From Eledone cirrhosa (lineage: Eukaryota), in contig OZ024742.1 of assembly GCA_964016885.1 (NCBI GenBank), forward strand, positions 276,396,001 through 276,460,000: DNA of 64,000 bases. The letters are read 5' to 3'. Shown here one piece after another: positions 20,698 to 43,550 of this stretch. Under the pieces are notes generated by a model. That model was not told the DNA's origin. It searched no databases and saw nothing but the letters and a program-made list of their open reading frames with translations. The position numbers and the translations under genes are program-made. Within the stretch, counting starts at the first letter, position 1. The number at the start of each line of letters is the position of its first letter.

Positions 20698-21959
20698 TTA
20701 GTGTCGAACTGTTATATTTTGAGCGTGATGTCTAGGCCAACCAAACTTACTACCTAGTAAATTAACGCCATAATGGAATTGTAGTTTAGAGTGAAAATTA
20801 CGAAAACTAGCAAGAATTTCTCGTTCAATTTTATGAAAATATTTCCGGGGTGTAAAGCCACTTCGAAGAGACCTTGCCAGAGTTATTAATCGTGGTCGGA
20901 ACTTAGCTTGAGACATGAATTTCTGAAAAAATTTGATACGTGTAATAACTTCTTGCTGTTGTAGTGAGTGAGGATGTCGCATACTGTTATTTAAAACACT
21001 TCCACCAATACAAAGCTGAAAGTGATACTCCAAATTAAGCGTCTTAGAAACAGGAGTAAAACAAAAACCAACTTCACGTAGAGCAAGCATCTGTTTCTCT
21101 TTTAATGAAGCTAATTTTAAAACAAATTTTTCTAAGTACTTTGAAGTGACTTTTTTCTTACAAGATAAACCAGGAGAAAGAGATGACAACGATTCAATAA
21201 AGACATGTTGTAATGACAAGAAATTATGGTTAACAGGAAATTTTGAACAATTTTTTGGATTTTCTTTTGTACAATAATACTGTCGCAGTTTAGATATTTC
21301 ATAGATTACCTTAGACAACAGATTGTCTGCTTTTATCTCATCTTTCATTACTTTTGGACATATTATTCGCTGAACATCTCTGTTTATAGAAGTTACATTG
21401 GCTATGGTAAGGCCTGCAGCAAACAAGGAGGCAACAGGTAGCTCATAACCAATATATTCTTCATCAATGTCTAATACAACATTTTCATCTTTTCGAATCA
21501 GCTTACCATTTCGTAGAAACTCCAAAGCTAAATCTTCACGAATTTTCTCAATTTTGGCAAGTCGTTTTATATTACATTGAGTAAAGGGAATTGATTTTTC
21601 TGCATATGGTGATTTGTTCCCATGTTGAACAGAGCAATTTTTTACACCTTTCTTAAAATAACTGATACAAAAGCAGGTGGTTGGTGTCTTTCCTGGAGGC
21701 TTCTTAGCATTAACTGTCCTTCCAAAAGATGCATAAACAATGCTGTGGGCTTTAATATNNNNNNNNNNNNNNNNNNNNNNNNNNNNNNNNNNNNNNNNNN
21801 NNNNNNNNNNNNNNNNNNNNNNNNNNNNNNNNNNNNNNNNNNNNNNNNNNNNNNNNNNNNNNNNNNNNNNNNNNNNNNNNNNNNNNNNNNNNNNNNNNNN
21901 NNNNNNNNNNNNNNNNNNNNNNNNNNNNNNNNNNNNNNNNNNNNNNNNNNNNNNNNNNC
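20698..21959 (-). CDS. UPF0489/C5orf22-family membrane-anchored protein, last coding exon (interrupted by 200 N)
   Basis: Frame is open from the gap edge (21758) to TAA at 20698 (~353 codons) and contains 'VVLDIDEEYIG', similar to the family LDIDxDxF motif. Candidate acceptor 'tatttcatAG' at 21961-21960 lies immediately before the gap. Confidence 0.75.
21759..21958. other. Assembly gap (200 N)
   Basis: Run of N. Confidence 0.99.
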
Positions 21960-22525
21960 CTATGAAATAGTTTTTACTTGATCTTGTTCAATATGGTTTG
22001 CATTTATAAATTAAAAAAATACAAGATTAATCAACCTGCAAGTATTATATATTAAACTCTAAAATATAGTTTTTAAGAAGTCGTTTTTTTTTTTATTTCC
22101 TCCGTCTTTTTTTTATTTATAACAGCTGTTCTATGAACATTTCAAATAAAGCAAACTAATTAAGACAGAATCAGCACATAAAATTAAATACTGTAATATG
22201 AATTTTTATTTTTTATTTTTTTCTAAAAAAGCATTCACATGCTGAGGCTGCAGATAAAAAGAAAGAAAAACTTATTGCTCCAGATATATGTTTCTGAAAA
22301 ATAAAAAATCAATGACCTTGGTTTTAAGTCAACAACCAGAACAGCCATTCACCTGTCAATGTACCAAATGATTGAAAGGTTAAATCTTTCAACTTAGATA
22401 ACACAAGGTGCAATACAACACAAACATCTGGTTTTAATTTTTTGTCCTGATGAATAATGCTAATTATGATATTTATTTTTACATAATTTAATCTTCAGAA
22501 TTAAAATATCGTCATCATCACAACA

Positions 22526-22770
22526 AAATGTCTCAGGAAAGAATCACTGGACAGATTTTAAGGGCAAAACCAACAGGTAGGAGACCTAGGGGTAGACCCC
22601 GAGCAAGATGGTTGGATAACATCCATGAGCTTGGTTGGTCACGCTTGGGGATCCAGCTGGATCAGTTGGAGACGGTTGCTTCTAACATGACCCGCTGGAA
22701 GGAATGTTTGATGACTGTGCCCCCACAACCCTCTCAGGAATAAGTGGGTAAAGAAAAGAAGAAGAAGATC
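22526..22770 (+). mobile_element. RTE-like LINE 3' end
   Basis: 'RPRGRPRARWLDNIHELGWSRLGI' followed by a (GAA)n tail. Confidence 0.7.
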
Positions 22771-22985
22771 ACCATCATCATAGATGATGGTGATGGCATT
22801 ATTTCTAAAAAAGATTAAATTTAAGTAACAAGAAATATCTTATAAAAATAGCTAGATAGTTTAATAATACTTTAAAGATTGATTTAAACATTATGATCCA
22901 AATATAGATCTCTATTGACTAGGGCTAATTTTTTGAAAATAGTTTTATGGATTGGGTTATTTATGTTACAGGCATTTATTTAATT

Positions 22986-23035
22986 TCTTATGTGTCAATG
23001 TCTCTATTATAGAATAGAGACATTGACACATAAGA
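22986..23035. repeat. Perfect 23-bp-stem hairpin in intron 2
   Basis: TCTTATGTGTCAATGTCTCTATT-ATAG-AATAGAGACATTGACACATAAGA. Confidence 0.9.
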
Positions 23036-23050
23036 TTAATATAGACATAC

Positions 23051-23112
23051 CAATGTGTTCCCATATTTTCGAATTGTCCCACTGTTGCCAGCTTCAATCC
23101 AAAGTGATAACA
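23051..23112 (-). CDS. UPF0489/C5orf22-family protein, coding exon 2 (62 nt)
   Basis: Acceptor 'tttttgttttttcAG' and donor GTATGT. The phase-1 join with exon 1 gives ...IVENHQE-V-LSLWIEAGNSGTIRKYGNTL, continuing the family pattern (VEDHQEVL...). Confidence 0.8.
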
Positions 23113-25419
23113 CTGAAAAAACAAAAAGTTGAAAAACTAAATATATTTTATAATGAAATACAAACCAAAAAAATCTTATTTTGAAGCAAAATAAAAAGAT
23201 TTCATTTGAAATATGTTGCAATTTGACAAAATGTCTGACATTAAATTTCCATAATCAATCCATTTATTTTCCACTAATTCCTAATTCTCCTTCATTCAGA
23301 ATGCCTATCATCACTGGCTTCACTCCTACTTCATATTTTAAAGAAGTGGCTGGAAGAGAATCTAGTTATAAACATTTTAGAAATGGTATGGAAATGTGAT
23401 GCATATAGATGATGATTATTGGGTAAAGAAGTGTCAGAAATTCCCAGTGGAAGGAAGTGACAGTAGAGGAAGGCCAAAGAAGACCTGGGTAGATGTGTTG
23501 AGAGCAAATCTCAAAATGCTAAACCTGATAGAGGAAATGAGAAAGGAACGCAGTAGGTAGAGGGAAGCTGTGCTGAAAAAAACTCATCCAACTCATGCAA
23601 GAATGGAAAAGTGGATGTAAAAGGATGAATAATGATAATGATCTCACAATATACAAACAAATATGTAAATAGTTTCTAAACTCATTTGTTTTAAAGGCCA
23701 ATGTTCAGCTATGATTCCATGGCCCTAGCAGATAAGAGAGATTTTTTTTTTCTAAAGGGAGAGGTAAAATGAGGTATCTTTTCTAAGACAAAATGAAATG
23801 CCTACTGTGCATTCAAATTCATGATATAATGTCTAACACATTTCATTTAGACTTTTTATGTCTGTGTAGTGATTTAACCGATAACAACTCAGCAGAATGT
23901 TTTCTTCCAACAAAAATCTCAAATGAGGATAATTTACCTGGAGTTATCTCCTATATTTGGTAATGAAAAAAATATTAGTTGCATTCTATTTCACTACATA
24001 TCTTATTTGAGCTTTTGTAATATTACAAACATTAAAATTACTTTAACACATTTAACTATCAAAGAGTCAGGAGGACTCTTCATTTGTGTTAAAGATATGA
24101 TAACCTGCTGGTGCAGCAATAAAATGCACCTAGTGCACTCTATAAAATTCCTTAGCATCAGTATGAGTGGCCAGTTATGGCCGGTTTGAACAGAAAGAGG
24201 TAAGAGAATTCTGGATGGATATGGCCAGTTTAAATACTTGTAGTTTAAAAGGGTTAAGCAAGATACAGGCCTCCAACCCATCTGAAATATTCAAATAATC
24301 ACTACTATAAGTCAGTAAGCTCAAAATCAACTTAACCCTTATTTTTACTATATTCCTAATTAACTACATGCTATTTCAATTTATCAATGGAGAAATTTGA
24401 GGTATTTACTAAAATTATGAATTAATTAATTAATAAGATAAGTAACCTAACATGTGGTTATTATATAAAATTATGTTGGAAGATTGTATTTTAAATAGAA
24501 GCCCTTTGAAGTGGGCAGTGTTATTTCATAGAACCAGAGTCAGTTCTGGGGAGGTTGGTATCAAAAAGCTTAATCTATAATAACTACAATGAGAGCTTTT
24601 GGGTTGCTTTGAAACTACACATCAGGTGAGTTAGACAAATTAGTTTCTCAGAGTGCTGACTTTAGTGCATTGCAGTTGGCTCTACACAAAGAAGAGAAAC
24701 GTCAACCAACATACTAATGTAGAAATGAAAACAAACACAAAACAGAAAAACATGGCAGTACTATAGCATAGTCATAAGCAGTGGTTTAAATCTTCAACAT
24801 GATCATGATCATCATTTTACATCTTTTTTCCATGTAGGCATGAGTTGGACAGGTCAGAGAAATGTGTGTTGCTTATACATTTCATATTTTGGCATGGTGT
24901 CTATGACTGGATGCCATTCCTAATACTAATCACTTTACAAACTGTACTGAGTGCATTTTAACATGGCACCAGTACTACTACTTTACAGAGTGGTCTAGGT
25001 ACATTTTATTGTGGCATCAACACTAGACAAGTTTTCTAAACAATGACAGGTTCAAAAGGTCCTCTCCACCCAATGTTATCTCTTGTTTTTCAAGGAAGTA
25101 TTGACTATTTTCCACCATGACACTAATACTAGAGAGGTTGTCTTGGCTTGTTGAAATATTTCAAATAAACCAAAACAAAACAATATATAAATTAAAACAA
25201 TTCTGACTTATAAAACTGAAATATTTTCACAGCACAACCAGAACTTGGGGATTCTTTTCAAATAGGAGGAAACTCAATCAATATCATGTTGTCTGTACAA
25301 ACAATGCCGGCACAATACATGCAGCAGATCTATCAGACTAACAAGGAACTGTAGTTTTAGGTGTACCAGAGGCACTGATTATGGTGATGAAGATATAAAT
25401 ATGAATATATAATTTAAGT

Positions 25420-25560
25420 ACAAAGCCAGTAATTTTCGGGAGGGGAAAGTCAATTAAATCAATCCCAGACTTGACTGGTACTTTATTTTATCAACCCTAG
25501 AAGGATGAAAGATAAAGTTGACCTCCGCAGGATTTGAACTCAGAAAGTAAAGACCCAAAA
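25420..25560 (-). mobile_element. tRNA-derived SINE fragment
   Basis: Reverse complement of the 8055-type SINE body. Confidence 0.65.
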
Positions 25561-27484
25561 TATGGAGATATAAGTATAACAAAAGGGCATATACCATAGA
25601 GTTATAGTGCAGCTTCAAAAATGCAAAATTTGTCAAACAGACAAATTATATTTATTCATAAATAATGAGGATTCAATGTTTTAGATACGTTTTCTGGAGA
25701 TAATTAATACAGTGTCTCCTCTTGGGTTTTTATGGAATTAATAAGATTAAGTCGAAATAGCTGTTTATCTGAAGATCTCCATTTGTGGATTGATGTTCAT
25801 ACCTTACATCAGAGGTTGATGTGTGGATGTCACTTCTAAGCAGAAGACACAAGAAGACTCTGAGGCACTACCTCCAGCATAGTTTATGTGTATGTCTGCA
25901 TGTAGTGTGGGTGTGTATGTGTGAGTCTACATGTAGTGTGTGTGTATGTAGTATACATGTGTGTATTCTGGTGCAGAGTTGATTTTTAATACACAGTTAG
26001 ATGGAATTCATGTATTTTATATTCAAACGAGAAGCTAATTTGCTATTTAAAATAGATTGTTATAAAGGTATCAAATTATCTCTTCAATAAACATCAGAAA
26101 ACAGAATTTTCACTATTCTATTTGAATACAAATAGTCTATAACTAACATGAAGGTAACATTTCAAAACCATATGTAAGTAAAATTTTGTGCAAACCAGAT
26201 TGTTCTGATTGAACAGTTTTGCATATCACACTTGATATACATTAGACAATATTGACATAGACATTGTTGAAAGAAATTTAAAAACAGATGTCAAAAGAAA
26301 CAAGTTTTCAAAAAGAGACAAACTTGCAGAAGTAGACAATGGGGGGTGAAAGACTCCAATATCCTCTCATGACATATATGTAATGCTTCAATGACAGTGT
26401 ACATTGTTTATAAATATATTTAAACAAGTAAAATAAACAGAAACAGAGACTTAAAGATGTATGTCAGTAATAGGCTTTACTAACACATCTACAACCACCA
26501 CAAAATGCTACAGCAAAGTGTTCTGTACATTGTTTATGAAATTACATTAAGTAAATGTTATACAACTAGGCAATTTGCCCATGGATTTGTGAAAACACAT
26601 TATATATAAGTTCAAGGACAGCTTCTACCTAACTTTCAATTGTTGACAGTTATAAATATAACAAATATATTTAAGACATGATATTTGTAAAAGATGCAGA
26701 AAAAAAATTTAAAAAAAAAAAAAATGAAATAATAAATTTGTGTAAGTTTTACTTGGATGCAATACTTTTCATTATTTTTTTTTCATGAATTGATTAATGA
26801 ATAAAATACTCTAAATTATTTCTATTTAATTAGTTCTTAATCTTCAACTCCCTAATCACCTTAAAATTAGTTAGTTTTCAATATAGCTTAGGAATAAACA
26901 TTAAGCTGCGTGGCTTTCAAAGAAGAAAAGGTCCATAACCTGAGGAAGTAGGATTTAATCAGGGGAATTAGAGTCAATATCTGACTGTTGAATGCCCACC
27001 TAAACTGGTGAAATTTGATGTAAATGATGTTCAGCATGAACATCAGTAGGTCAGTGTTTGCAAATAAAATGTAAGCGGGGAAGGAATTTCAGAGGATTGC
27101 AGCTCCTGCAAGGAAATATTGGATAAAATATTTTGTGTAGTATCTGGTGGCAGCAGTAGCAGTTGTAACAGTAGTAAAAGGAGAGGGTAGAGAGAACACA
27201 GATGTAAACCAAAAGTTGTAGAGTATTGGTGAGCATGTCTTTATCAATGAGTGGAAGTTTTTTGGGGTTGTGATCTAGGATGTCTGTGTGCTGTGGCAGA
27301 GCACTGTTTGATATGTGTGAGCAATACTTTAATATGGTAGTTATTTAAGCTTTGTAAAGTGTGTGTGTGAGTGGCGGGGAGGGGATTTGGGCTGAAGTAT
27401 TTCCTTTCTTCTAAAAACGTAATCCTACTCTTTGTGATGCAGTTTTGTCAATATGTGGGATGCAATGTATTTTTTAACAATACT

Positions 27485-28060
27485 ATCATCATTATTTTAC
27501 ATCCATTTTTCTATGCTTACATGGGTTAGACAGGTATAACACAGCATCCTGCTATCACTCCTCACCACTTCTTTCCATGTCTTTCTTAGTCTTCCTCTTC
27601 CATAGATTCCACCCACTTGTTTGGATTGCTTGCTAGTTCTTTACCTAACTGCTATACATACATATCAGATGTCTATACCTTGCTTGCACACTACAGCTGA
27701 TTTCTCATATACTCAGTTTTTCTCTCAACTTATTTGTGCCCCATCATTCATATCCATTGGAGCAAGATGGCCTCATTTCTTTCCAGCCTCTGTACATTGT
27801 CCATATTCAGTGTCTATGTTACACCACCATGAAATAAACTGTTAATACACAAACCTTGTACAATCTGCCCTTCACTTTGAGGAACAGAATCCTTACGTTA
27901 CCAGCAGTGATAATAGCTTTTGAAACTTTTCCACCCTGTTTTTATTCTAGAGGAACAGAATCCTTACGTTACCAACAGTGATAATAGCTTTTGAACCTTT
28001 TCCACCCTGTTTTTATTCTAACTTCTATGCTTTTAGAACATTCATCTTCACTGCTATCAA
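27485..28060 (-). mobile_element. Degraded RTE 3' fragment containing a 71-bp tandem duplication (27879-28019)
   Basis: RTE tail motif; GAGGAACAGAATCCTTACG...TTTTTATTCTA repeated twice. Confidence 0.65.
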
Positions 28061-28069
28061 GATTTCCTT

Positions 28070-30045
28070 GAGCTAGTGCTGGACTCAAACTGGTCACAAG
28101 TAGTCACCTCTCCAACAAGAGGTGACAACACTTTGGACTTGCTCTTCACCACTACTCCTGAAGTGGTTATCAGTTGTACTACTGAGGAACCTCTAGGCGA
28201 CTCTGATCATGCTATGATGATTGCCAATCTGGCTCTTGCGGGCAGCAACAAAAACCAGAACCATCTCCAATCTGCTTGCTTTGATTGGAAGAAAGCAGAT
28301 TGGAACTTGTACTGCACTGAGCTACAGCGCTCAAACTGGCATGAGTTCTATAACTCTGAAGATGTGAACACTATACTCCAGAGCATCCTGGACTCAATAT
28401 GGATAGCGTGTGCAGCATCAGTGCCACGTAAGCAGAAAAAAAACACCCCAAAAGTGCAATTTGGGAAACTTCAGCGGTCCGACTTGCCAGGAAAGAACAT
28501 CGGAATGCTGAACGGGAATATAAACTGCATAAATCAGATGCCAACAGAAAAAAGCGGAATAAATCTTCCAACCATCTCAAGCAAGTGAGAAAAAAGGCAG
28601 TTCTTGAATTTGAACAGTGCATAGCAACCAATCCTGACAGTAAGGTGTTATGGAAATATGTACATTCAAAGCAGAGACTTCACTCTCCAGTTGGGCCTGT
28701 TCGCAATCTCCACACAAGCCAGATCACTGACGATCCCAAAGAATGCGCAGAACTCATTGCTGAGTGCTATGCAAGCATTTTTACTGTTGAAAACCAGAAT
28801 GTACCATCTCCACCATCTCTAACATCAAATTCCATAACAACTATAGAATTTACACTTGCAATGCTGCAACGTCACCTTAAGAATAAGCGCAACTATGCCT
28901 CCCCTGGTCTTGATGGTGTTACATACCTGCTTCTCAAACGTGCGGGTACTTCCTTTTGCACCAGCTTTCTTTCTTCTTTCAATACTATCTCAACAATGGT
29001 GCTACTCCGGAGCAGTGGAAAACTGCCAGTGTCGTTCCTCTGTTCAAAAAGGGTGACCGCACGTCACCTGTCAACTATCGTCCAGTCAGTCTTACTAGCT
29101 GTATTGCCAAACTGATGGAATCCTGTGTCAGAGAAACACTTTGGAACTTCTGGAGCTCTCACAGCCTCATCCGGCCCTCGCAATTTGGATTTATCTCTAA
29201 CTCCAGCTGCTGTGATCAGCTTATTGAGTTCCTTGAAGACATTACCCGGATCACTGACAGCGGCTCATGGGTGGATGTTGTTTACCCTGACTTCGCTAAG
29301 GCTTTTAATTCTGTGCCACACAAAAGACTTATGGCGAAACTCTCTGCAATGGGTGTGAAGGATGATCTTTTTAACTGGTTGAAATCCTTCATTTTCAATT
29401 TGTCAAGAAGGCCAAGGGTGTCTTGGCATCACTCAGCAAGACCTTTGTTAGCCGCTCTCCAACAATCTATTTAAATCTGTATACAGCTATGGTACGACCA
29501 CACTTGGAATTCGCATCATCAATCTGGAACCCCTATCTTGCTCAGAACATTGACTTCCTGGAAACTGTTCAGAGACATGCAACCAAGCGCATACCCTCCA
29601 TCAGACACCAACCATACTCTGAACGCCTTGCTTCCCTGGGCATGGATTCATTGAAGCTACGACGTCTGGCAATGGACTTGGTAAACACCCACAAAGTTAT
29701 TAACCATCTCGCCAACAACAACCCTGAGCACCTTTTTGATCTCCATGTGTCTAACACACGTGGACATGCCTACAAAGTCAGAAAACAGCACAGCTCCCAT
29801 GACTTTCGGAAACATTTTTTCACGCTTAGAGTTGCTGAAGCATGGAACAAACTGCATCCTTTAAAACGCTCATGCTTCCCGAAATTCGCCAAAACTATAC
29901 TTGATGTCCCCCCTTCCATACACATGCACTCATGCACTGTTCATTTTCCTGACGTTTGTACATTACCCTATGTACTATATATACACTTTTGATGAGTTGC
30001 AGTGCACCTGAGCACTGTACACAATATTTTCATTATTATATTATT
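28070..30045 (+). mobile_element. CR1-clade LINE, 5'-truncated and internally deleted
   Basis: 'PTRGDNTLDLLFT..LGDSDH' (APE), 'ASPGLDGV', 'PLFKKGDRTSPVNYRPVSLTS', 'DFAKAFNSVPH', 'VRPHLEFASSIWNP' and 'TRGH..K'; (ATT)n tail; the QG/YADD core is missing near 29400. Confidence 0.9.
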
Positions 30046-30239
30046 AAGTTTCTGGTAACAGAAGCTACCAACTACTTCTTGGGTATCTTCCCATGTTTTC
30101 ATTCAGCTTTAAACTTGTATATATTCAAGATGAAAAATAACTGCATCAGCCCCTTCTTCTAATAAAAGGTAAACATTAAATATGATGTGTCTTCAATTTT
30201 TTTCCTTTTGAAAATAAGCTATGTAGAATGATGTAAATA

Positions 30240-30852
30240 TATCTCTATGCAGATGATTTGGTCTTTATAGCTGAAACCAAAAGAGAACTAGAAAATAAAT
30301 TCTGATTATGGAAACGGAATTTGGAATCAAAAGGTCTGAGAGTAAATTTAGCCAAAACTAAAGTGCTAGTGAGTAGGAAAGAAGACAGGACCCAGTTTTC
30401 CTCAGGGAAGTGGCCATGCTTAATATGCAAAAAAGGAGTAGGCATAAATTCCATACAATGTACACAATGTAAATCTTGGGTTCATGGGTTCACAAAAGAT
30501 GTAGTGGGATAACGAGTAGACTAACAGGAAGAGAGAACTTTGCTTGTAGAAGATGTACAGAAGAAATCGAGAAGAGTGCTAATTATATAAGCCCTTTCCA
30601 GTCACAGGAAGGATCCATAGACGTGGTTGATAGTTTTCTGCCCTCTAGGTGACCTAATTAGTAGCAGAGGAAGGTGCACCAAGAGTATAATAGCTAAAAT
30701 AAGGATAGGATGGAAGAAGTTTAGAGTAATGCTCCAATTGCTGACAACAAAAGGTTTCTCCCTACGTACAAAAGGAAGGCTGTATAACACCTCTGTGCTT
30801 CCAACACATGGAGGCATGGAAAAGCTGATGTAAAGACCATGATGATGATGAT
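30240..30852 (+). mobile_element. RTE LINE fragment
   Basis: 'YADDLVFIAE', 'GLRVNLAKTKVLV' and 'GWKKFR'. Confidence 0.8.
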
Positions 30853-31261
30853 ATATATATATATACACATGTATATAAGTGTGTATATTCCTTGTAAATC
30901 ATTAAAAAAAAAGTACCAGTTCAGTCCAGGAGAGGGGGTGGGCTGTATGCGAATGTAAATAGTTGTTCAACCCTATCTATTCATTCAAAGATGTTTCTGT
31001 TGACAAAAGATTCCTATTTATGAGGGAGGTAGAAACAATTTTTATTTATTATTGCAGGGAAAATTCACAGTGCTTCTAACCATCCAAACTGGTGAAATCA
31101 ATGGTTGCTTTGAATTTCAATACAGAAAATAAAAGGAAAATGTAGGATGAATGATTAGATAAAGTGTTTATTTAATGCAGAGTTTTGGAAGTGAGACACA
31201 GGATGGTGTGAGAAGAAGTATGCATGGAATAAGTTTGAATATTGTTAGTACACATATTGCA

Positions 31262-31866: not shown

Positions 31867-32077
31867 ACCCTTTTGTTACCATATTTCTTATGAAAGATTT
31901 GAAAATAACCAAGAATTAGGAGGGATTTTCTCATTATAAATCTGGTATTTGGAACAACTCAAAAGTTCTTATATAAAATTAAAATGTAAGGTTTGAGATG
32001 AATATAAAGCCATTAAAGTAAACAATTTTGTACCATAGCACCAGGGGGAGTTTTAGGTAGTTTGGTATCAAAAGGGT
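31867..32077 (+). mobile_element. piggyBac-type MITE family B
   Basis: CCCTTTTGTTACCA...TGGTATCAAAAGGG termini; related degraded copies near 13115-13340, 24335-24572, 32838-33000 and 47880-48062 (-). Confidence 0.6.
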
Positions 32078-32450
32078 TACATAAAAAAAAACTAATTGTT
32101 TTAATAAAGGAAAATATATTCAGTAGGCATTTCTTTGCCTGACTATTATCACACCCACACACAAAGGAGGGGGGTTTCAGTGGGAACAAAAACCTAATTC
32201 TAAGTAACTACATTAATAAATACATTAAGGTCAAGATTGCTTTATACAAAGTTTCACAATGCAGCGAATAACAATGCTACCATCTGCAATCGTTCACACA
32301 TTTGAGGCTAAATAAAAACGCTGTCTCAAATATCATGTGTGAACATTATAACTTATTCTATCAATAGACAGTTTCATAAGAAAATGTTATCTAGTTATTA
32401 AAAGTTTTTGAAGAGAAGGGGTATTAGTTTTTGTTTTGTGTAGTCATTAA

Positions 32451-32652
32451 CCCTTTAGCATTTAAACTGGCTGTATCTCTTTCTGTTCAAACCAGCTGTA
32501 ACCGGCCACTCATACAGATGTTAAGGTATTGTTCTCGAAATAAATAATATCAAAATCTCATAGATTCGATATTATGTGAGATAATTATGTGAGGTAAAGC
32601 CTTTACCATGAAAATGTAATAGTAAATATAGAGTAATGTAAATGCTAAAGGG
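32451..32652 (+). mobile_element. Full-length piggyBac-type MITE family A (202 bp)
   Basis: 14-bp TIRs CCCTTTAGCATTTA/TAAATGCTAAAGGG with TTAA on both flanks. Confidence 0.88.
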
Positions 32653-33027
32653 TTAAACATATGCAGAATTTGGGAATCATAAAGCACAGGTACAAGTGTC
32701 TGTAAGTAGCAAGGCTAATGTATAAATGAACATTATTCAATTAGCTCTTAGTGTATCCCCCGGCTCTTAACAGAAACAAGATGGCTGCAAGAATAAAGTA
32801 TTGGCCCACTTTTTTTATTAGGTTGTGATTGCTATACCCCTTTTGTGGCCATATTTCTAATTAAAAACATTACCTATGGTTTTTAAAATATTTTGAAAAT
32901 AATCAAGGATTTGGAATGATTTACTAACTTTCTTATTATTAAGCAGAGGTTTAAAACATGACTTAAGAAATGTTCTTACATAAAATTATGATGGAAAGGG
33001 TCTTCCTATAAAGGAAAATTGTATATA

Positions 33028-33362
33028 CAGTGTACCCCTGTCATTTGCAGTCCGGTTATTCACGAAATTTTCTTTAGAACCTAACTAATAATTGTTCATG
33101 GAAACCACGGCATATTTGCGGAATCGTAAATATCTTGCACAATTTTTTAATGGCATTTTTAATGCTAAATTATTAATAACAATATACCATATTTTCCGAC
33201 CTATTGGACGCCTCTTCACACTCGCTTTTTTTTTAAAATTATATTTTACGTTATATTTTGACGCTTATAGGCATTTTTATGGACCACGTCGAATATTTGC
33301 TATTTTTCACTCTTCGCGAGTGCGCTAGGAACATAATCCCCGCAAATACTGGGGAACAACTG
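33028..33362 (+). mobile_element. Tigger/pogo-like MITE
   Basis: TA-CAGTGTACCCCTGTCATTTGC...GCAAATACTGGGGAACAACTG imperfect TIRs. Confidence 0.55.
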
Positions 33363-33837
33363 AATACATATATAAGGAAGATAGTATATATACATATATA
33401 AAGATTGTAAAGTCTAAATTTTTTATACACTTGCATTATTATATGGAGGACTTTATACAGAATTTTTGTTAAAGATCATAACAAAAACAATACCAAACTG
33501 TTGATGTAGTTTGGTAAAAAATAATTATTATAACCATTATTATAATTGTTGTTAGGGTGGTAGATTAGCAGTATTTGCTCCTGCTCCTTACGTCCTAAGT
33601 TCTAATGCCGCTGAGGTGATCTTTGCCTTTCATCCTTCTAAGGTCGATAAAATAATGTACCAGTCAAATACTGTATCGATATAATTGACTGTCCAAACCC
33701 CTCAAAATTGATGGTCATGTGCCTAAATGATTGTTGTTGGAGCATAACCCACTTGAGGGTTTTCTGTCTTGTGGTGGAGAATACACAAATCCTTCCTTGT
33801 CCCTCTTATCAGCACAGAGCTGTATCATCATCATTCA

Positions 33838-34160
33838 TCATCATTTTACGTCCGCTTTTCCCTGCTTGCAAGGGTGGGACGGGAACTGATTCTGGCTTGA
33901 TTTCTACAGCTGGATGCCCTTCCTAACACCAACCTCATTTACAGTGAGTGCTGGGTGCTTTTTTGCCGTGGCACCTGCACGACCACTTTACAGTGGAATG
34001 ATATGGACCCCAGTCCTATCATCTCATTTCTACAGCTGAGTAAACTGGAGCAATGTGAAATAAAGTGTCTTGCTCAAGGAAACAACACATCACCCGGTCT
34101 GAGAATTGAACTCACAACCTTTTGATTGCAAGGCCAATGCTCTAACCACTAAGCCATGTG
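33838..34160 (-). mobile_element. tRNA-head SINE with RTE-derived 3' tail
   Basis: Minus strand starts ACATGGCTTAGTGGTTAGAGCA (A box) and has GAGTTCAATTCTC (B box); the tail shares 'GGAAGGGCATCCAGCTGTAGAAA' with RTE 3' UTRs. Confidence 0.8.
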
Positions 34161-36479
34161 CCTCCATGTAGTGACCAAAATAGTGGAAGTAACATCACTA
34201 TGAACAACCAGCACAAAGACCACGAGCAACAATGGCATCCAGCACAGTAGCTATGCTGAAGATGACAAACCACATCAGCAAAAATATATTTAACATGAAC
34301 CCTACCCACCAAAGAATGTAGTGTATTAACACAAAAAAATAGAAACAGAATAGACACATGTGCAGACATACTGCTATCCCTCACTCTATCCTCTCTCTCC
34401 CAAAGCACGGCATTAAATGATGAAAAAGAGAACAGACCACGGTAAAAACTAGTGGTACAGGCAGAGCCTCCAAGAGAAACTTTGGAAGGTGGCACAAGAC
34501 TCCTTTGAGGTCCGAAGCAGGCAAAGATTTTTCTCAAAATGGATGTTGCATAGTTGCTGTGGAGTCTTCTTAGCTCATGGGCCCCCAGAACAAAAGTATC
34601 CCCCCCCCCTCTCATGGGCTCTGGGTACAGGTAGAGAAGAAGCAAGAAAACCAGCAACAGTTATGCAATAAGATTTGATGAGACATCAAAGAACTTGAAC
34701 ACCACCACTACCATCACTATCACCACCACAATAACAACAGAACTAAACCCACAATCACAACCACAGCAAAAACAACTATAGAATCAACAATAAGAATATA
34801 AACAACAGCAAAACACACAAATAACAAAAAGAAATAAAGAAATAACAACGAAACACACACAACTTCTTTCAACTTTACTGTTGTATAAAAATAGAAACAG
34901 TGATACAAAATGCTGAAGGTAAGATTTGGTGAGACATCAAAGAACCTGATAACCACCACTAGCCTCGTATGCCCCCCCCCCCCCTGTCACCGCCTTCACT
35001 ATCACCACCAAAACGAGCAAAAACAACTATAGATACAACAACAGCAAAACACAAAAAAAGCAGAAAAATACACAAACATAAAAAAATACATAAAAAGAAA
35101 CAACAAAAACAACAGTGAGCTGGGGGACTATTCAAAACAATTCAACAGCAAAATATAAACTAAAGCAGCGGTCGCCAACCTCGTCTGTGAGAAGATTTTG
35201 GTGGTCTGCAGAAAAATTTTAATGCATCTATCTTTTTTAAAAAATTCATAATAGTGGTCTACAGGATTTAAAATTATGAATTTAGTGGTCCATGAGGTTG
35301 GAAAGGTTGGCGGCCGCTGAACTAATGGATAGGATTTTCAGGAGTTTGTCCTAAAAACACCATTAGATATATTTCTGTGGAAAATACCACCAGAGCTACA
35401 TTTTCATAAATCCATGTCAGGCTTGTTTTCCACACACTAATCACAACTGACAACAGACTGAGCACATTCCAAACAATGTTAGCAAAAGAACAATGTTGCT
35501 GCAGGGTAAGGCTATGAACATGACTGTAGAATACAGAGTTTAAGATTTTGACTAAAGTATGATCAGCAGCATGCAGACTGGTACTTCCAGCAGATCTATC
35601 CACAACAACCACCCCCTAATGTGATACATCATAGAGAGGATGGGCAATATACCTGGCATCAATCCAAAGACTTCAGTAGCATTGATCATCAATGCCTGAA
35701 GGCTATCCTCAGTACAACTGGCTTCTGCCTCATTTTCAAAGGCTAGATTACATCAATGTACTACGAAATCTGCTCAGTGATCAGATTAAATAATCATTTA
35801 TTGGAACGTTTTTGAATCACATGCTTAGTCTATCAAAGTTAACCTCTTTCATTGTGCCTGTACATTTTTGCTCTTGAGCATTTGCTACAGGAGCTCATCC
35901 CTTACAAACCTAGATGCAGGTTGAAGCTCATCCCTTACAAACCTAAATGCAGGAAGGTTTCCTTGGCATATCCAGGTATAATTGAAACAAGGTGCTGAAC
36001 TAGGTGGTTAGTCATACACGGAGATGGGCTTAGAAGAGACTATTCCTGAAAGGTCAAACAGAAGTGATAAATGTATGGAGGGTTTCATATGCTACAGCTA
36101 ACTACACAGGCATACAAAAATTGAGATCACTGTTTGTGGGTCACATTTTCACACAGCTTATCTCTTTTAAAGGGCTACAATCCTCGGTCATGCAAAGATT
36201 GTGCACCTGGTATCTGTAATCAGGCACACGGTCTGCTTGTTTATACAATGTCAATGAGGCGGTCAATGATTTAAAAGGTTTTGGAATCTCTGCTCTACAC
36301 TCATGGATGCGTGGCATATTTCAGCTATGCTCTGCAGACAAGATGGCAAAGGTGTTACTGTGGAAAATGGCTAGTGATACCTATTGTATCAGCCATTCCA
36401 CCTCATCCAAACTCAGTGGAGGAAAATGGCAGTCTAGGGATCAAGAATACTGAAGGTATCAATAGCAACTGACACAAAA

Positions 36480-36885
36480 GAGAACAGGCTAGTCAATGCT
36501 AATTCTAACCTTGTTGACTGCTCCTCTATACATGGCTTGTACTGCCCTCACAAGCTATTTATCTATTCCAAGCTTTCTAAGAGCCCACTAGATAATGGAA
36601 CAGGGGGAGGGAGCTTTGTCAAAAGCTTTCTCCAGGTCAACAAATGCCAAGTAGAGGGGTTTACCTTTAGCTAGGTACTTTTCCTGTGGTTGCCTCACAA
36701 CAAAGAGGGCATCAGTGGTACTTTTACATGGCACAAAACTGCATATCTAGGTTCATTCAGTCCCTAATCAACTGTGCTATAACTTCCTGTGACATTCATG
36801 ACCTGGTCCATTAAGTTGATGCCTCTATAGTTTTCTCTGTCTAGAGAACCTCCTTTGCCATTGTAGCAGTTGACAATGATGCTGT
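36480..36885 (-). mobile_element. Older RTE RT fragment interrupted by a younger RTE
   Basis: 'LAFVDLEKAL' and 'NYRGINLMDQVM'; sequence appears to resume near 39020. Confidence 0.7.
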
Positions 36886-36907
36886 GACACCAGTCATTGG
36901 GTATAAC

Positions 36908-39015
36908 ACATCATCATCGTTTAACGTCCATCTTCCACGCTTGCATGGGTTTGGACAGGAATTTTCCCACTTGAGGCAAGATTGGTTGTCTTGCTCGTAT
37001 AGGACTGCCTGGCGGGTTTTCTATGGCTGGATGCCCTTCCTAACACCAACCATGTTTACAGTGTGGACTGGGAGGTTTTTACCGTGTTACCTACACGGCC
37101 ACATTACAGCATGGACTGTGTGTTTTTTTGTCGTGACACCTACACGACCTCATTTATTTCGGACTAGATGTTGTGGCACCAATATAACTTTACATCGAAA
37201 GGGGTGGTGTGGATGGGGTGGGGGTAGTGGGACGGGGGGTGTATTTTTGTTAAGAGGTGCCTACTGACTGTAGGTTTCGCTTTGTACTTAGGCAAGGCGG
37301 GTCTTCTGTATTACTGTGTAGCGCCAAAGATCTCAGTCCAGTGACATTGTCTTAGAGAGGTGTAAGTGTATGAGGTCGGAATTTATCAAGTCGTCCCAGG
37401 TTTTTCAGGGTCTGCCTACTCCGTGGCTACCGTCTATTTTTATCGCCCTGCATTTTTTTATACAGCTGTCGTCTTTCATGCGCCTCACATGACCATACCA
37501 ACGTAGTCTTCTCTCGAGTAAACAACATCTGATCCCTCTTATTCCTAATTTCTCCCTTATCTCATTTATGCTTTGCCGTTCACGTATATTACTATTACAC
37601 ATCCAACGGAGCATGCAAGCTTCGTTCCTCTCCAGTCTGCGTATATCCTCTGCACACAATGCCCAAGTCTCACTGCCATGTAACATTGCTGTTCGTATGC
37701 AGGCATCATACAGCCTGCCTTTCATTTTTAGAGAAAACCCTTTAGCGGCCAATAGTGGTATAAGCTCTCTGAACTTTTTCCATCCCGTTCTGACTCTAGC
37801 TACTGTACTTTCAGAGCACCCTCCACCACTGCTGATTTTGTCACCCAGGTAACGGAAGGTGTCCACTATTTCTATAGAACCATCTGTGCAATGGAATGAG
37901 TTAGTATTCTGTGGGCACTTGCTGCTACTTATTGCACCTGAGCACCGGCCACATATAAAATCTATATTCTTAGTTAGCTTACCTGTGATCCCACTACATT
38001 ATGCACCCATACTTTGCATTTGGGACATAAAATGGAGTTTCTGCCTACACCTTTCCTACACACTGAGCATGGCCATTTCCCAGATGGGACCAGTGCCATA
38101 TTTTCCTTCCTACAAACTAGAACTTTAGTCTTAGACAGGTTAATTTTAAGGCCTTTTGATTCTAGGCCATGCTTCCAATGTTTGGAATTTCTTCTCTAAT
38201 TCAGCCATTGATTCAGCTATGAGCGTTAGATCATCTGCATATAGGAGTTCCCATGGGCAGCCGGTCTTGAACTCCTCTGTTATAGCCTGAAGGGCAATAA
38301 TAAATAGTAGGGGGCTAAGGATGGAGCCCTGATGAACACCAACTTTTACGCTAAACACCTAGTTTTCTAAGAGCCCACCAGATAATGGAGCGGGGGACTC
38401 TGTCAAAGGCTTTCTACATGTCAACAAAAGCTAAGTATAGGGGTTTACTTTTAGCTAGGTACTTCTGTAGTTGTCGTGCAATGAAGAGCGTCTGTGGTAC
38501 TTTTACCTGACACAAACCCGAACTGCATTTCATCTAGATCGATTCGCTCTCTGATTAGTTGTGCTATTACTTTTTCTGTGACCTTCATGACCTGGTCAAT
38601 TAATTTAATGCCTCTATAGTTTCCCCTAGCTAGGGCATCTCCTTTACCCTTGTAGCAGTTAATGATGATGCTGCTACGCCAGTCCTTCGGAACGACCCCA
38701 TTCTGTATGACTTGGTTTACTATCCGGGTGACCATAGTGTGTCCCACCGTTCCAGATGCTTTCAGCATTTCAGCAACTATTTCTGAAGGCCCAGCCGCCT
38801 TGCCTGTCTTCATATCTTTGATCGCCTTACTTATTATACTACCTTCAACTTGCACTGCTGGTCCCTCTATTGGATCGATGTGGGGGAGACTGGCTTTCTC
38901 CCAATTATTCTCCTCATTTAGTAGCCTTTCGTAGTGACACTTCCAAGCTACCTTCTTATCAGCGTCAGTGATGGTAAGTACACCATCATCATTAAGGACA
39001 CACTTCTCCCCGACA
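36908..39015 (-). mobile_element. RTE-clade LINE (RT to 3' UTR)
   Basis: 'KAAGPSEIVAEMLK', 'YKGKGDALARGNYRGIKL', 'GVHQGSILSPLLF', 'LLYADDL' and 'RWYGHV'; (CAT)n tail. Confidence 0.92.
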
Positions 39016-39019
39016 TCTG

Positions 39020-40380
39020 GTATAATTTGGAGTACAATACAGGTGATTAAGGCGTGGCCCACCATCCCAGATGATTTCAACATGGGGCAAACTATTTTTC
39101 TCCCATGCATTCACTTCATTCAGTATTCTTTCACAGAGGCACTTCCATGCTATTTTCTTTTTCAGTGTCAGTAGGAGCAAGTATGCCATTATCATCTTAG
39201 ACACACTTCTCCCCCATCAATATCTCAATTTTCCAACACACTGCCTTGCAATCCTGAACACCTCACAACTTTGGTACTCACATTGCAGAACAAGCTTCAA
39301 TTTTTTATTTTCTGCTTCCCTTCTTGCAAAGTATACTTGTCAGCTAGCCTGCTGGTAGTGTTCTCTACTTCCCCCATTCTGCCATTCTTTCCATGCTTGT
39401 CTCTTAGCCTTAATTGTTTCATCCACCCTACATTTCTCCCACCAAGTCACTCTCCTCACTAGAGACCTGCTCCAACCACAGATTTTGTTTGTTACCTTCA
39501 GCAGATTATCTTCAAGAACATCCACTGCTCCTCTATATTGTATGTCTTTATTTGCTTTTCCTTACTGTCAAAAGTATCAAGCAACATACCTCTACATTTG
39601 TTACTGGTTGAGGGGTCCCTTAACTTCCACATTCTTCTCCTCCAGGCTGTTCTTTGTTGCCAAGTTCACCTAGACCTAACTATAAAGTTGCTAACTACTA
39701 GGTTATGTTGAGAGGTGCATTCCTCACAAGAGAGGGACTTTGTGCTTACAACCATCACTCTATCTCGTCTTCTCGTAGAGTAAAATCTATCTGGCTGGCA
39801 TGCCCACCTTATCTATAGGTGATCAAGTGATTGTCTGGGATTTTATTTTACAGATAGATAGATCATCAGAATTCTAGGAGCCCGAAACCTTCCTCGTTTC
39901 TTGTGCCAAACCTAAAACTTCCATGGACTTTGTAGAAGCCATCACAATGTTGCCCAACATGCCCATTAAAGTCACCTGAAATGATTATGAAGTCACCTTC
40001 GCTTATTTGGGAAGTAGTGTGCATTAGAGATTTGTAAAACCTGCCTTTAAGTTCATCTAACAGTCCACATTGAGGTGTGTATGCAGAAATGATTGTTACA
40101 GTTCTATTTAGGACTAGTCAAAGTTAAACGATTCTGTCAATCACTCTATTTACAACAATCACCTTATTTACCCATTTTTCTGCTAACAAATACCTACACC
40201 ACCCAGCCCGTTGTCATTGCCCACACAGAAAAATTTGTGACATCGTTTTTTGCCCACAAGGAATCTGGCTGACATTCCTGTTCATCTAGTCTCATGTACA
40301 CAGCACACATCAATTTTCTTTCGTTCTAGCATCACTACAATCTCTCCTGATCTTCCTTTCATCATGTCTACATTGTGATA
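39020..40380 (-). mobile_element. Degraded RTE LINE endonuclease/linker region
   Basis: Recognisable remnants of APE motifs (GDFxxxxGDFNGHVG, ISAYTPQCG) with many stops. Confidence 0.7.
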
Positions 40381-40719
40381 GACATTGAGTTAACAGTTAC
40401 AACATATTTGCACTACTGTAGTTTGATTTGTCTAGGTAGCTATGGTGGTGTGTGGGAGGGAAAATGCGAGATGAGCTATAGACACCAATTGTAATAGGAG
40501 TAGAGAAGAGCCATTAAAGAACGAAAAGAACCTTAATCAAAGTTATATGAGCTGAAGTGTAATGTAATTAATGGATCATATGAATAACTGGAAATAAAAT
40601 ATTTTTACATACTTTCAATTTTTCAAGTACACCAAATAAATGAGAATAGGGTTATATTTAGTCTTCATATATATATTTATTATATATATTCCCCCCTATA
40701 TACACACTTTCCACAACTG

Positions 40720-41285
40720 ATGCACCGCTCCTGACCAACCCAAGCATACAAGCATGGAAAGCCGGACGGCCAAAAGCTCTCAGTCCATCTTGTAAGGTAG
40801 TCATGTTGCTGACACATCATAAGCCCTTAGTCCACCATGTAAGGTGCTCATACTGGTGACATGACAAAGGAGCACCTAGTCCTCAGTGTAAGGTGGTTGT
40901 GTTGGTGATATGACAAATAAGCACTCAGTCCACCCTGTAATGTGGTCGTATTGGTGGCTCGACAGAAGGTCCCCGGGTCGTTCTGCAGTCGTCGGGTTGG
41001 TGATACGACAAAAGGCACCCAGACTGTACTATAAGGTGTTCATCTTGACGACAAAACGAAAGCATACAGCCCACACTGAAAAGTGGTCGTTTTGGTGCCA
41101 AGGTTAAAAGTATCCTATCCACGCTGTAAATGTGGTTGACATTAGGAAATATGCATCTAGCTGTAGAAACCAAGCCAGAAACAATTCTGTATGAGCAAGA
41201 CACGGTCATCTGATCTAACTTGTCTCACAACAGGAAAATTCGTCTAACCCACGTTAGCCTGGAAAAGTGGACGTTTAAGTCATGA
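40720..41285 (+). mobile_element. RTE 3' end with ~44-bp tandem repeat array
   Basis: About seven diverged units of AGTCCAC..TGTAAGGTGGTC..TTGGTG.CA.GACAAAA.GCAC; similar arrays at 11270-11390, 49190-49400 and 63280-63380. Confidence 0.65.
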
Positions 41286-42031
41286 TATATGGGGGGGGGG
41301 GGGTCAAAACTAGTTTAATGTCTTCATTTGATTACAATTGATTAGGCTTTTTTTGTTTCCTGGTTGATATTCGTTATCAAGATAAAATTCTAAAGTACAA
41401 ATTTCTGGATGGGTTTCACGTTTAGTCTACTATGATACAAACAAAAATAGAATTTAGTAAACGAAAACATTAACGATACTGAAAGTAAACTATTGAAAAA
41501 ATTAATTCTATTTTATTTTACATTTCATCAACATAATCATCAACATATTTTTTTAAATATATAATTTAATAGAGTTATGAGGAAAGAAAGTTGGGAGGAG
41601 GGCTCTAAATTGTAGCTATGCATAAATCCACAAATAGATTTGTTACAATTTCGTGAAGAAACTGAATATTACTTATTCCCCAAGTAAAACAAGAGATTAT
41701 GTACGGGTATATAATAATTTATATATGTATTTATTCTGATTAAGCAGTGACTTGGTCTGTAACGACCTGTCCATATCATGTCAGCGTGGATAAATGACGA
41801 TGGTGCTGATAGTTCATTTCTGTTGTTCTAATAATAACAACGAGTTTTTCTTTAAGCACAAGGCCAGTAATATTAGGAAGAGGAAGTCAATTATAACGAC
41901 CCAGGACTTAACTGGTACTTTTATTTTATCGAAGGTTGAAAGGCAAAGTTGATCTAGGCAGGATTTGAACACATAACATAAAAAGTCTTCACTAAATACC
42001 GCAAAATAATAATAATAAAATCTTTTCCTAC

Positions 42032-42377
42032 CTTCTTGGTGATTTTCAACGATAAAAATGGGCAATTCGTGAGAGATGGTAATTTTTTTACCTTTCGCGT
42101 GACCCACTAGCATACTTGCATTGTGTTTATTTACTTTCTTGTGTACACGGTTTTTCTTCTGGAGACGAAATACAGAACCAGAAGACTTACTGGATCTTAA
42201 AAGAGCAGCATAAACAACAACGACACAACATAGAACAAGAAGTAGAAAAAAAGATCCTACAGCTCGCCTTCGCAGGCGGCAAATTTTCATGTTACAAAAC
42301 ATGTATCTACACTGGGTTATGTGTCGGCAAAAAGAATTAGTAGCAGAATTTCTGCTGCTCTTATTTGATACAAGCAT
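42032..42377 (-). CDS. UPF0489/C5orf22-family protein, coding exon 1 with signal-anchor
   Basis: Basic 'RLRRR', then hydrophobic 'AVGSFFLLLVLCCVVVVYAALL', a Lys-rich stem and 'HELPIFIVENHQE' (C5orf22-like 'LPVWVVEDHQE'); donor GTAGGA at 42031. The start could instead be the ATG at 42302 or 42290. Confidence 0.8.
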
Positions 42378-43400: not shown

Positions 43401-43550
43401 CGAAATTTCCAAAGATATATTTTCAAAGGTATAGATTACGAGAGTATTGATGAAATGTTTTTAAAATGTTTTGTACAAATGACAATGTTCAAGGACAAAA
43501 AATAAAAGAAAAAAAGCCTATGACATACTCTTGATTTATATTATTCATTA

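Follow-up and report, generated by a model that had tools for sequence, protein, structure and literature searches.

The UPF0489 family (PF12640) is a family of di-Mn peptide arginases, in which bacterial members are proven enzymes and OspR converts arginine to ornithine and urea (PMC10028609); the description of this family as uncharacterised, in an initial annotation of the locus considered here, was therefore wrong. Proof of such enzymes is confined to bacterial RiPP pathways, and for C5orf22 this activity is a hypothesis (PMC10028609; TAMALE preprint). A literature search returned no publication describing an animal member with a membrane anchor, and the supplements of PMC10028609, PMC5454378 and the TAMALE preprint may list such proteins. 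Among ureohydrolases that have lost their activity, MetCb has a demonstrated non-catalytic partner role, and provides a precedent for a ureohydrolase pseudoenzyme that serves as a scaffold (PMC11271267).

The gene described below lies within a 64,000-nucleotide stretch of the genome of the octopod Eledone cirrhosa (the whole of which is termed the window). On balance, its product is best explained as a type II lumenal protein that derives from a clade of peptide arginases and is now a pseudo-arginase, acting as a non-catalytic binder or scaffold.

Gene structure and an assembly gap

The gene is real: in its exons and splice sites, as well as in its motifs and its signal anchor, it agrees with full-length orthologues (Table 1). 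When the orthologue from Argonauta (P0002) was compared with the window by tblastn, its residues 1-117 aligned to exon 1 (E 9e-37), 117-139 to exon 2 (E 2e-5) and 203-551 to the last coding stretch (E 5e-162); no further match below E 0.4 was found within the window, which thus holds no second copy of the gene. Exon 1 begins with an ATG at 42377 and ends in phase 1 (G/GT at 42032), exon 2 is flanked by a polypyrimidine tract with CAG on the acceptor side and by GT on the donor side, and the first junction is backed by collinear orthologue proteins, two of which come from contigs of 2-3 kb. The exon boundaries initially placed at 42032, 23112, 23051 and 21959 were confirmed by canonical splice sites, the tblastn matches fall exactly on the three sequenced coding pieces, and the basic N-terminal tail, single hydrophobic helix, lysine-rich stem and motifs quoted with them were all found in the sequence. 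Comparison with orthologues suggests that Met26 (42302), which is also present in P0002, P0006 and P0007, may be the true start. An Rfam search gave 0 matches. The locus corresponds to a conserved cephalopod gene that is unannotated (‘uncharacterized protein’).

Table 1. Positions of gene and protein features in the window, in the direction of transcription
Feature	Positions	Strand	Remarks
Exon 1 coding part	42032..42377	-	aa 1-115 + 1 nt; encodes the cytosolic tail, the signal anchor, the stem and motif 1
Single hydrophobic helix, aa 39-60 (22 aa)	42198..42263	-	Arg-rich cluster before it; type II signal anchor
Motif 1, E-N-H-Q-E (family EEH(N/H)E)	42033..42047	-	MnA His retained; Asn in place of the guanidinium-positioning Glu (OspR E11)
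Intron 1	23113..42031	-	18,919 nt, GT-AG, phase 1; LINE remnants inside
Exon 2	23051..23112	-	62 nt; covers the helix that follows motif 1 and the beginning of the strand towards DxHxD
Intron 2	21960..23050	-	1,091 nt, GT-AG, phase 0
Exon 3 acceptor AG/G and first base 21959, then 200-N gap	21759..21959	-	
Last coding stretch	20698..21758	-	352 aa and TAA stop; beta insert with Cys, then motif 3, the helical insert and the C-terminal arginase strands
Motif 3, L-D-I-D-E-E-Y	21454..21474	-	Metal-ligand Asp pair (OspR D165, D167) kept; next conserved Asp replaced by Glu
Helical, Cys-bearing insert of ~160 aa	20971..21453	-	At the place of the OspR dimerisation domain
N-glycosylation sequon	20983..20991	-	Most conserved sequon column of the clade (24/52 rows)
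R-S-x-R-x-G motif (OspR S264 region)	20854..20874	-	Clade Asp replaced by Ser, same as OspR
First AATAAA downstream of stop	20039..20044	-	Candidate polyA signal

The initial description of three exons encoding 555 residues was not confirmed, since a run of 200 N (21958-21759) breaks the frame and only 488 residues (136 + 352) are sequenced. Joining the pieces as that description had done yields a coding sequence of 1670 nt with 22 stops in the start frame, which demonstrates that the reading frame is not preserved across the gap. Approximately 64 codons are absent (residues 139-202 of P0002), and with them the DxHxD and NDxF motifs and the WxWP strand. Eight of the 60 N-terminally incomplete rows listed open with residues that resemble translated intron and end in Q directly ahead of position 180 of P0002, and an octopod fragment (P0008) begins exactly at that position; together these starts point to a fourth exon boundary inside the gap, which probably conceals an intron. 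That the locus might instead be a pseudogene or a set of mis-joined fragments is scarcely credible: while the frame is broken across the gap, and a divergent second copy (P0005) exists in O. bimaculoides, the break falls inside the N’s, and the 488 sequenced codons are all open, collinear with P0002 and bounded by canonical splice sites. The intact reading frame, together with an identity to P0002 of approximately 72% (96/136 and 253/348), indicates that the gene is under constraint.

Family membership and fold

The assignment of the protein to UPF0489 has been substantiated through its orthologues and a purpose-built profile, although none of the three window pieces matched PF12640 in a Pfam search, because the family core falls in the gap. 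All 52 rows of the clade to which it belongs match PF12640 at E<=0.001; relative to the gathering cut-off of 27 bits, P0002 (40.1), P0006 (42.8) and P0007 (46.8) score above and P0001 (22.4) below. With a profile made from 54 bacterial OspR-like proteins, the window pieces themselves reach 64.7 bits, compared with at most 7.5 bits among the 158 of 200 shuffles listed, and the homology to those proteins spans the N-terminal, middle and C-terminal core. OspR and P0002 match directly at E 5e-11, and a profile of the clade matches OspR at E 1.6e-32.

Fold matching was conducted on a model of an orthologue (pLDDT 82.9) in place of the window protein. The arginase fold that had been proposed was borne out: the model superimposes on OspR (8BRP) with a Z score of 18.4 and an rmsd of 3.5 over 249 aligned residues (Foldseek E 4e-9), and ureohydrolases come next, at Z 6-8. 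A homodimer prediction for the lumenal domain of P0002, run without an alignment, scored 0.00, a value that speaks neither for nor against a dimer.

These comparisons also bear on the chemistry, which had been left as that of ‘a deacetylase or amidinohydrolase’. The second alternative stands as the ancestral activity, since bacterial members of the family are proven peptide arginases, and the first is disfavoured. An HDAC-type deacetylase acting on glycans or proteins in the Golgi would share the arginase fold, as HDACs do (PMC5454378), and would suit a topology similar to that of Golgi glycan-modifying enzymes. It is nevertheless very unlikely: the HDAC zinc site corresponds to the arginase MnB site (PMC5454378), whose histidine the cephalopod orthologues have lost, intact members of the clade display a six-ligand di-Mn signature, and OspR is the best match in both sequence and structure. 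No HDAC-type entry was found among the 50 structure matches listed for the orthologue model, in which OspR ranks far ahead of the rest.

A membrane-anchored clade

Phylogenetic analysis placed the window protein in a distinct eukaryotic clade of type II membrane proteins with 98% support, in a tree of 78 rows that was built by a quick method and evaluated by SH-aLRT only. Besides the window, this tree took in 51 of 158 collected proteins, for the most part those that span the N-terminal core, together with 26 of 60 open reading frames from bacteria. The clade is eukaryotic and, where labelled, largely molluscan; its Atlas cluster is labelled as 100% Eukaryota, with Mollusca commonest among the 66 of 97 entries of known phylum. 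Stem branches of 0.52 and 0.34 are long, which counts towards degeneracy of the cephalopod lineage. Neither a profile search (no new member among 7,999 candidates scored) nor a tblastn search of plasmids and phages with an intact member, P0012 (no match), extended the clade.

The protein may, as had been proposed, be a paralogue of C5orf22. A soluble C5orf22 homologue (P0158), which lacks an anchor before motif 1 and displays about 27% identity to P0002 over 37% of the latter, falls outside the membrane clade; however, a joint grouping was not rejected by an AU test that included this single C5orf22 row (p-AU 0.457).

Outside of the cephalopods, all six metal ligands are kept in 46 of 48 rows (in 44 together with the guanidinium glutamate), and an N-terminal anchor is found in 40, with 39 combining the anchor and all six ligands. 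These non-cephalopod members are thus candidate peptide arginases of the secretory pathway.

Topology and the lumenal domain

The proposed type II secretory topology was upheld across the clade. A hydrophobic N-terminal helix is present in 43 of 52 rows, and 34 of those 43 carry more positive charge on its N-terminal side; the cephalopod rows are neutral around the anchor (5 vs 5), and a weak second hydrophobic stretch also occurs in 12 of 52 rows. Sequons are enriched in the clade (174 vs 133+/-11, z 3.7), whereas 60 bacterial proteins give z 0.6, and five are found in the C-terminal part of the window protein. That remainder had been termed ‘Cys-rich’; its overall content is modest (10 cysteines in 352 residues), but eight structural cysteines, nearly invariant in the clade, are all retained. 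The hydropathy-based layout (a short basic tail, one transmembrane helix, a stem, and a predicted glycosylated, cysteine-bearing lumenal domain) is that of Golgi type II proteins, and we infer that the window protein resides in that compartment. The helical insert, modelled alone, adopts a confident predicted fold (pLDDT 87.8); structure searches gave no match at Z>=8 among 48,161 chains (the best, at Z 6.9, was among helical bundles), and Foldseek gave none at E<=0.001, results from which neither the novelty of the fold nor its kinship with a known one follows.

The hydrophobic segment might instead be a cleaved or shed signal, such that a basic domain is secreted into mucus, matrix or gland secretions; this reading, which is compatible with a pseudoenzyme, appears unlikely. 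The stem is long and disordered (pLDDT<50 at residues 65-85) and might be cleaved, signal-like N-termini occur in two of 60 bacterial relatives (L018 and L048), and a basic surface would fit matrix binding. On the other hand, a helix of 22 residues behind an arginine-rich tail of 13-38 residues is long by the standard of cleaved signals. The anchor helix (residues 34-62 in the orthologue model) is nearly identical among cephalopod orthologues, and tail and anchor together are almost invariant, as a retention signal would be; membrane-proximal basic tails are the signals of GOLPH3 clients (PMC8421267).

Loss of active-site residues in cephalopods

The initial annotation had proposed an active hydrolase; the cephalopod branch, including the window protein, has instead lost conserved active-site residues. 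The histidine of DxHxD (MnB) is present in all 48 non-cephalopod rows, and is replaced by K, N, N and K in the four cephalopod-branch orthologues (D-x-K/N-x-D/N), from which its state in the window, where the motif sits in the gap, was taken. The NDxF motif is likewise eroded in this branch. Visible changes within the active-site motifs of the window protein are E11 to N, H to Q and D to E, and overall it alters five of 17 visible conserved polar positions, as compared to four of 32 structural ones. An aspartate-to-serine change in RSxRDG was dropped as a sign of degeneracy, since OspR itself has serine there.

Mutational precedents are available for several of these positions. In E. coli agmatinase, the equivalent histidine-to-asparagine change abolishes activity (PMC7313459), and loss of the guanidinium glutamate leaves 1-2% (PMC8125230); in OspR, a DxHxD triple mutant retained about 1% and D43N left 5% (PMC10028609). 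We infer from the sequence comparisons that the cephalopod branch is degenerate and that its active site is apparently disabled.

It is rather less probable that amidinohydrolase activity persists in the cephalopod protein, on a changed guanidino substrate and by way of a remodelled site (mononuclear at MnA, or modified by Lys or Asn). Sequence constraint is strong, and the equivalents of H12, D39, D165, D167 (the D-I-D ligand residues of the window lie at 21471-21463) and S264 are kept in every cephalopod row that covers them, as is D43 in three of four, and P0006 and P0007 retain both D43 and E11; this preservation of acidic ligands across the branch suggests that metal is still bound. Against such activity, the lost histidine is the very residue whose replacement inactivates agmatinase, and Argonauta also lacks D43. 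Moreover, the changes vary by lineage (K vs N; D, N or E at E11), a pattern that looks like relaxed constraint rather than new, fixed chemistry.

Proposed function and its implications

Under the favoured reading of a lumenal pseudo-arginase, the gene would encode a type II protein of ~550 residues, with a short arginine-rich cytosolic tail, one anchor, a stem, and a disulfide-rich, N-glycosylated lumenal domain that combines the PF12640 peptide-arginase fold with a clade-specific helical insert. Typical clade members, with their full di-Mn site, would most likely hydrolyse peptidyl-arginine, with ornithine plus urea as the products, on proteins in Golgi transit. Within the cephalopod branch, the MnB histidine would have been lost, as would the guanidinium glutamate in octopods such as this one, and NDxF would have eroded, while the fold was retained and the surface turned strongly basic (the cephalopod lumenal domains, at a net charge of about +9 per 100 residues, are the top four of 52 rows, and the window protein joins them). 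A mononuclear site may persist, because four or five of the six ligand positions remain, more than in MetCb. The ligand of the window protein is probably polyanionic cargo (sulfated glycans or acidic proteins), to judge from amino-acid composition, or else a partner enzyme.

A broader and more tentative proposal, which we regard as somewhat doubtful, is that invertebrates possess Golgi-lumenal peptide arginases that act on prohormones or secreted proteins and turn their arginine into ornithine, and that the cephalopod copy became a cationic, polyanion-binding pseudoenzyme. If so, a RiPP-like modification would occur in the animal secretory pathway, where it could mask dibasic cleavage sites (ornithine blocked trypsin in the OspR study; PMC10028609) or tune charge. 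Ornithination of secretory-pathway proteins, the prediction that follows from an anchored eukaryotic clade whose di-Mn site is complete, would have as its signature a shift of -42.02 Da in mollusc secretomes; a literature search found no ornithine-containing secreted substrate from an animal. The cephalopod branch would offer a natural enzyme-to-pseudoenzyme pair with charge reversal, and for the window gene alone its likely inactivity tempers the earlier claim of a hydrolase.

Comparison with known systems

The closest counterparts are the OspR-type peptide arginases (PDB 8BRP; BipC, PbsE, FlmR and OhkR), which resemble the clade in fold, in three motif positions and in a C-terminal RSxxxG; where OspR has its dimerisation domain the clade carries an insert, and its intact members also keep all six Mn ligands. 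The clade differs in being eukaryotic, spliced and type II anchored, in its eight conserved cysteines, its sequons and its inserts (~160 residues of helix, plus beta), in having DIDED rather than DIDLD, in its lack of a RiPP precursor context and, in the cephalopod branch, in the absence of the MnB histidine. C5orf22 and insect UPF0489 homologues (P0158, and Atlas clusters that bear the name Misexpression suppressor of ras 6) share the Pfam family and motifs, but P0158 is without the N-terminal anchor, of 22 residues, that the window protein has.

Classical ureohydrolases (arginase, agmatinase and proclavaminate amidinohydrolase) have the alpha-beta-alpha sandwich in common with the clade, but are soluble, act on small molecules and display GGDHS where motif 1 of the clade is EEHxE. 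The pseudo-ureohydrolases, MetCb of metformin hydrolase and an arginase-like protein of T. brucei (4RHI), parallel the window protein in that the arginase fold has been kept while metal ligands have decayed; they differ in being soluble and of PF00491 type, and in a more extensive loss of ligands, which in MetCb amounts to five of six, as compared to one or two of six, along with the guanidinium glutamate, here.

Gene structure and genomic setting

The initial annotation joined three exons into a protein of about 555 residues, and the canonical splice ends and the reading frame uphold this from exon 1 through exon 2 to the acceptor of exon 3. P0002, the full-length Argonauta orthologue (553 aa), aligns by tblastn exactly on the gene's three pieces, through its residues 1-117, 117-139 and 203-551. 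The straight join across the 200-N gap, on the other hand, is out of frame with 22 stops, and the full length is given by homology only: 488 residues of the window protein are sequenced, and P0002 residues 139-202, the DxHxD motif among them, have no counterpart in the window sequence. The gap probably contains a further intron, because 8 of 60 N-terminally incomplete relatives, among those listed, open with an intron-like stretch whose last residue, immediately ahead of position 180, is Q; the octopod fragment P0008 begins at 180 itself. The gene is real, and a pseudogene is extremely improbable. An octopod is the probable source of the DNA, since the C-terminal piece shares 74% identity with LOC106873836 of Octopus bimaculoides and 72% with a protein of Argonauta hians.

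The window DNA is AT-rich, repeat-laden and eukaryotic. One arm of the larger inverted repeat runs on imperfectly into its spacer; the structure may be a mobile element of foldback or MITE-like type, or may have arisen in assembly. One copy of the SINE/MITE-like family lies directly downstream of the gene's stop codon. Pfam searches returned no credible match for the frames that follow the DDE transposase fragment, and none for the GC-rich remnants.

Features of the gene and of the mobile and repetitive DNA around it
Feature	Position	Strand	Remarks
Exon 1	42377-42032	-	canonical GT-AG end; in-frame join to exon 2
Exon 2	23112-23051	-	canonical GT-AG ends; in-frame join
Exon 3 acceptor	21959	-	canonical AG; in-frame join to exon 2
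Run of 200 N (assembly gap)	21958-21759		between exon 3 acceptor and last coding stretch
Near-perfect inverted repeat	4852-5684		arms 337 nt, 99% complementary; spacer 159 nt
Second small inverted repeat	16358-16598		
One LINE, three decayed copies	6554-7988, 11383-12992, 36744-39110		reverse-transcriptase pieces; one copy inside intron 1
LINE remnant	28037-29992	+	endonuclease and reverse-transcriptase frames; antisense in intron 1
DDE (mariner-like) transposase fragment	44270-44764	+	upstream of gene
Frames, probably of a transposon-derived protein	45237-46502	+	after the DDE transposase fragment
Related GC-rich retroelement-like remnants	43081-43460, 53067-53681, 56012-58023		inverted copies 53120-53647 and 57492-57992
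Dispersed ~230-nt SINE/MITE-like family	2980-3212, 20233-20465, 31251-31483, 32441-32656, 60741-63016		

Family and fold

The proposed membership of UPF0489 (PF12640) was recovered through relatives and not through the window pieces themselves: none of the three matched in a Pfam search, the gene core falling in the gap, while three full orthologues passed the cut-off and 52 of 52 clade rows matched. Against a profile built from 54 of 60 bacterial relatives, the window pieces scored 64.7 bits (shuffles at most 7.5, among the 158 of 200 listed), and by sequence homology the protein is a PF12640 member. The bacterial enzyme OspR (PDB 8BRP) was the only significant PDB sequence match, at E 1.6e-32 for the clade profile. 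The AlphaFold model of P0002 (pLDDT 82.9) places a single long N-terminal helix and a disordered stem before a folded domain, which matched OspR with Z 18.4 (rmsd 3.5, 249 aligned), ureohydrolases following at Z 6-8; the model thus favours the arginase-like fold that had been suggested.

The description of the family as uncharacterised has been overtaken. Passages of PMC10028609 show pfam12640 enzymes to be peptide arginases of the di-Mn type, marked by the motifs EEH(N/H)EAF, DXHXD and LDIDLDYFSC, assign the OspR metal ligands to H12, D39, H41, D43, D165 and D167, propose E11 as the guanidinium holder, and hypothesise that C5orf22 is also a peptide arginase, with which a passage of the TAMALE preprint (10.64898/2026.05.28.728550) agrees. 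BipC is another proven member, according to part of PMC12707348.

A membrane-anchored clade

Among 1.84 billion representatives searched, 344 matched and 150 of these were listed; the clade alignment comprises 52 mostly full-length rows. A hydrophobic helix precedes motif 1 in 43 of the 52; its N side is the more positive in 34 of those 43 (six ties, three reversed), and sequons are enriched (z 3.7, against 0.6 in 60 bacterial proteins), all of which is consistent with the type II topology predicted initially. Eight cysteines are each 94-100% conserved. As read from sequence, this anatomy is the one seen in type II proteins of the Golgi; GOLPH3 binds the basic tails of such proteins (abstract of PMC8421267).

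Outside the cephalopods, all six ligands are kept in 46 of 48 rows, the ligands plus E11 in 44 and the ligands plus the anchor in 39, and such intact members are credible candidates for secretory-pathway peptide arginases. The taxa of the clade, from the Atlas label, are Eukaryota, Mollusca being commonest. The larger prize is the set of intact members, and with it the idea, less likely than not, that animals edit Arg to Orn in their secretory pathway. The literature searches, covering main texts and few subscription papers, turned up no account of an animal clade with a membrane anchor; in the passages searched of PMC12703449, 'transmembrane', 'signal peptide', 'animal' and 'mollus' do not occur.

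In a tree of 78 rows, a branch with 98% support divides the 50 clade members from the peptide arginases of bacteria and from P0158, an insect homologue of C5orf22. That branch would separate the clade from a soluble C5orf22 homologue, as first envisaged; union of the clade with P0158 was not rejected (p 0.457). The window protein groups with P0001, P0002, P0005 and P0006/P0007 on a cephalopod branch (100%), whose stem is long (0.52, and a further 0.34 to the octopods); P0006/P0007 would be cephalopod from tree position only. P0005, P0004 and P0008 represent a second, faster-evolving Octopus copy (O. bimaculoides LOC128248350; branch 0.4), a lineage-specific duplication.

On the bacterial side, a 1,068-nt contig of a Chromatiales MAG (L001:148-1053) codes for the C-terminal ~290 aa of the eukaryotic clade (35% identity, E 1e-46); it is probably host DNA contaminating the bin and not a bacterial gene. 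The match regions L018 (Planctomycetota) and L048 (Spirochaetota) encode PF12640-like proteins with signal-peptide-like N-termini, and therefore exported members in bacteria too.

Active-site decay and proposed role

At the place of H41, four cephalopod-branch orthologues have K, N, N and K, and the 48 other rows all have His; each of the four also has an eroded NDxF motif, and D43 is Asn in Argonauta. When the positions shared by 80% or more of the other rows are taken, 64 in all, 17 are altered in at least one cephalopod row, all cysteines being retained. In the window, Asn takes the place of E11 and Gln that of the His after it, and motif 3 has Glu as its third acidic residue; changes at conserved positions affect 5 of 17 visible polar sites versus 4 of 32 structural ones. 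According to passages of the respective papers, H151N abolished and H126N halved E. coli agmatinase activity (PMC7313459; the distance between H151 and D153 identifies H151 as the His of DxHxD), E274A leaves 1-2% activity in that enzyme (PMC8125230), and OspR D43N leaves 5% (PMC10028609).

We lean, by a modest degree, towards a Golgi-held type II protein whose arginase-fold domain has lost the ability to hydrolyse guanidinium groups. Entering the ER through its type II anchor, it would be retained in the Golgi through its Arg-rich tail and expose to the lumen a disulfide-bonded, glycosylated domain. This domain would serve in binding or scaffolding, its target probably being a partner enzyme or cargo of polyanionic nature; MetCb is a comparable case in metformin hydrolase (part of PMC11271267), and the T. 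brucei arginase-like protein (PDB 4RHI), going by titles, is a further arginase fold with decayed metal ligands. In the window and four orthologues the C-terminal part carries a charge of about +9 per 100 residues, the top of 52 rows (next 5.6), and the polyanionic ligand is a guess from composition. Against this reading, the window's own DxHxD His falls in the gap, four or five ligands are still present, P0006 and P0007 keep E11 and D43, and the charge asymmetry is absent around cephalopod tails. Continued enzyme activity through a remodelled site is doubtful. A shed or secreted form, itself compatible with loss of hydrolysis, seems rather improbable. The deacetylase option raised initially fares worse still: the HDAC Zn site corresponds to the MnB site (passages of PMC5454378), the one lost here, its His being gone in the orthologues, and an HDAC-like activity is very improbable.

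Comparison with known systems

The window protein resembles OspR-type peptide arginases as a decayed counterpart. It falls outside the active peptide arginases because its E11 is replaced and DxHxD is broken in its orthologues; and because it is anchored, it is not a plain C5orf22 orthologue.
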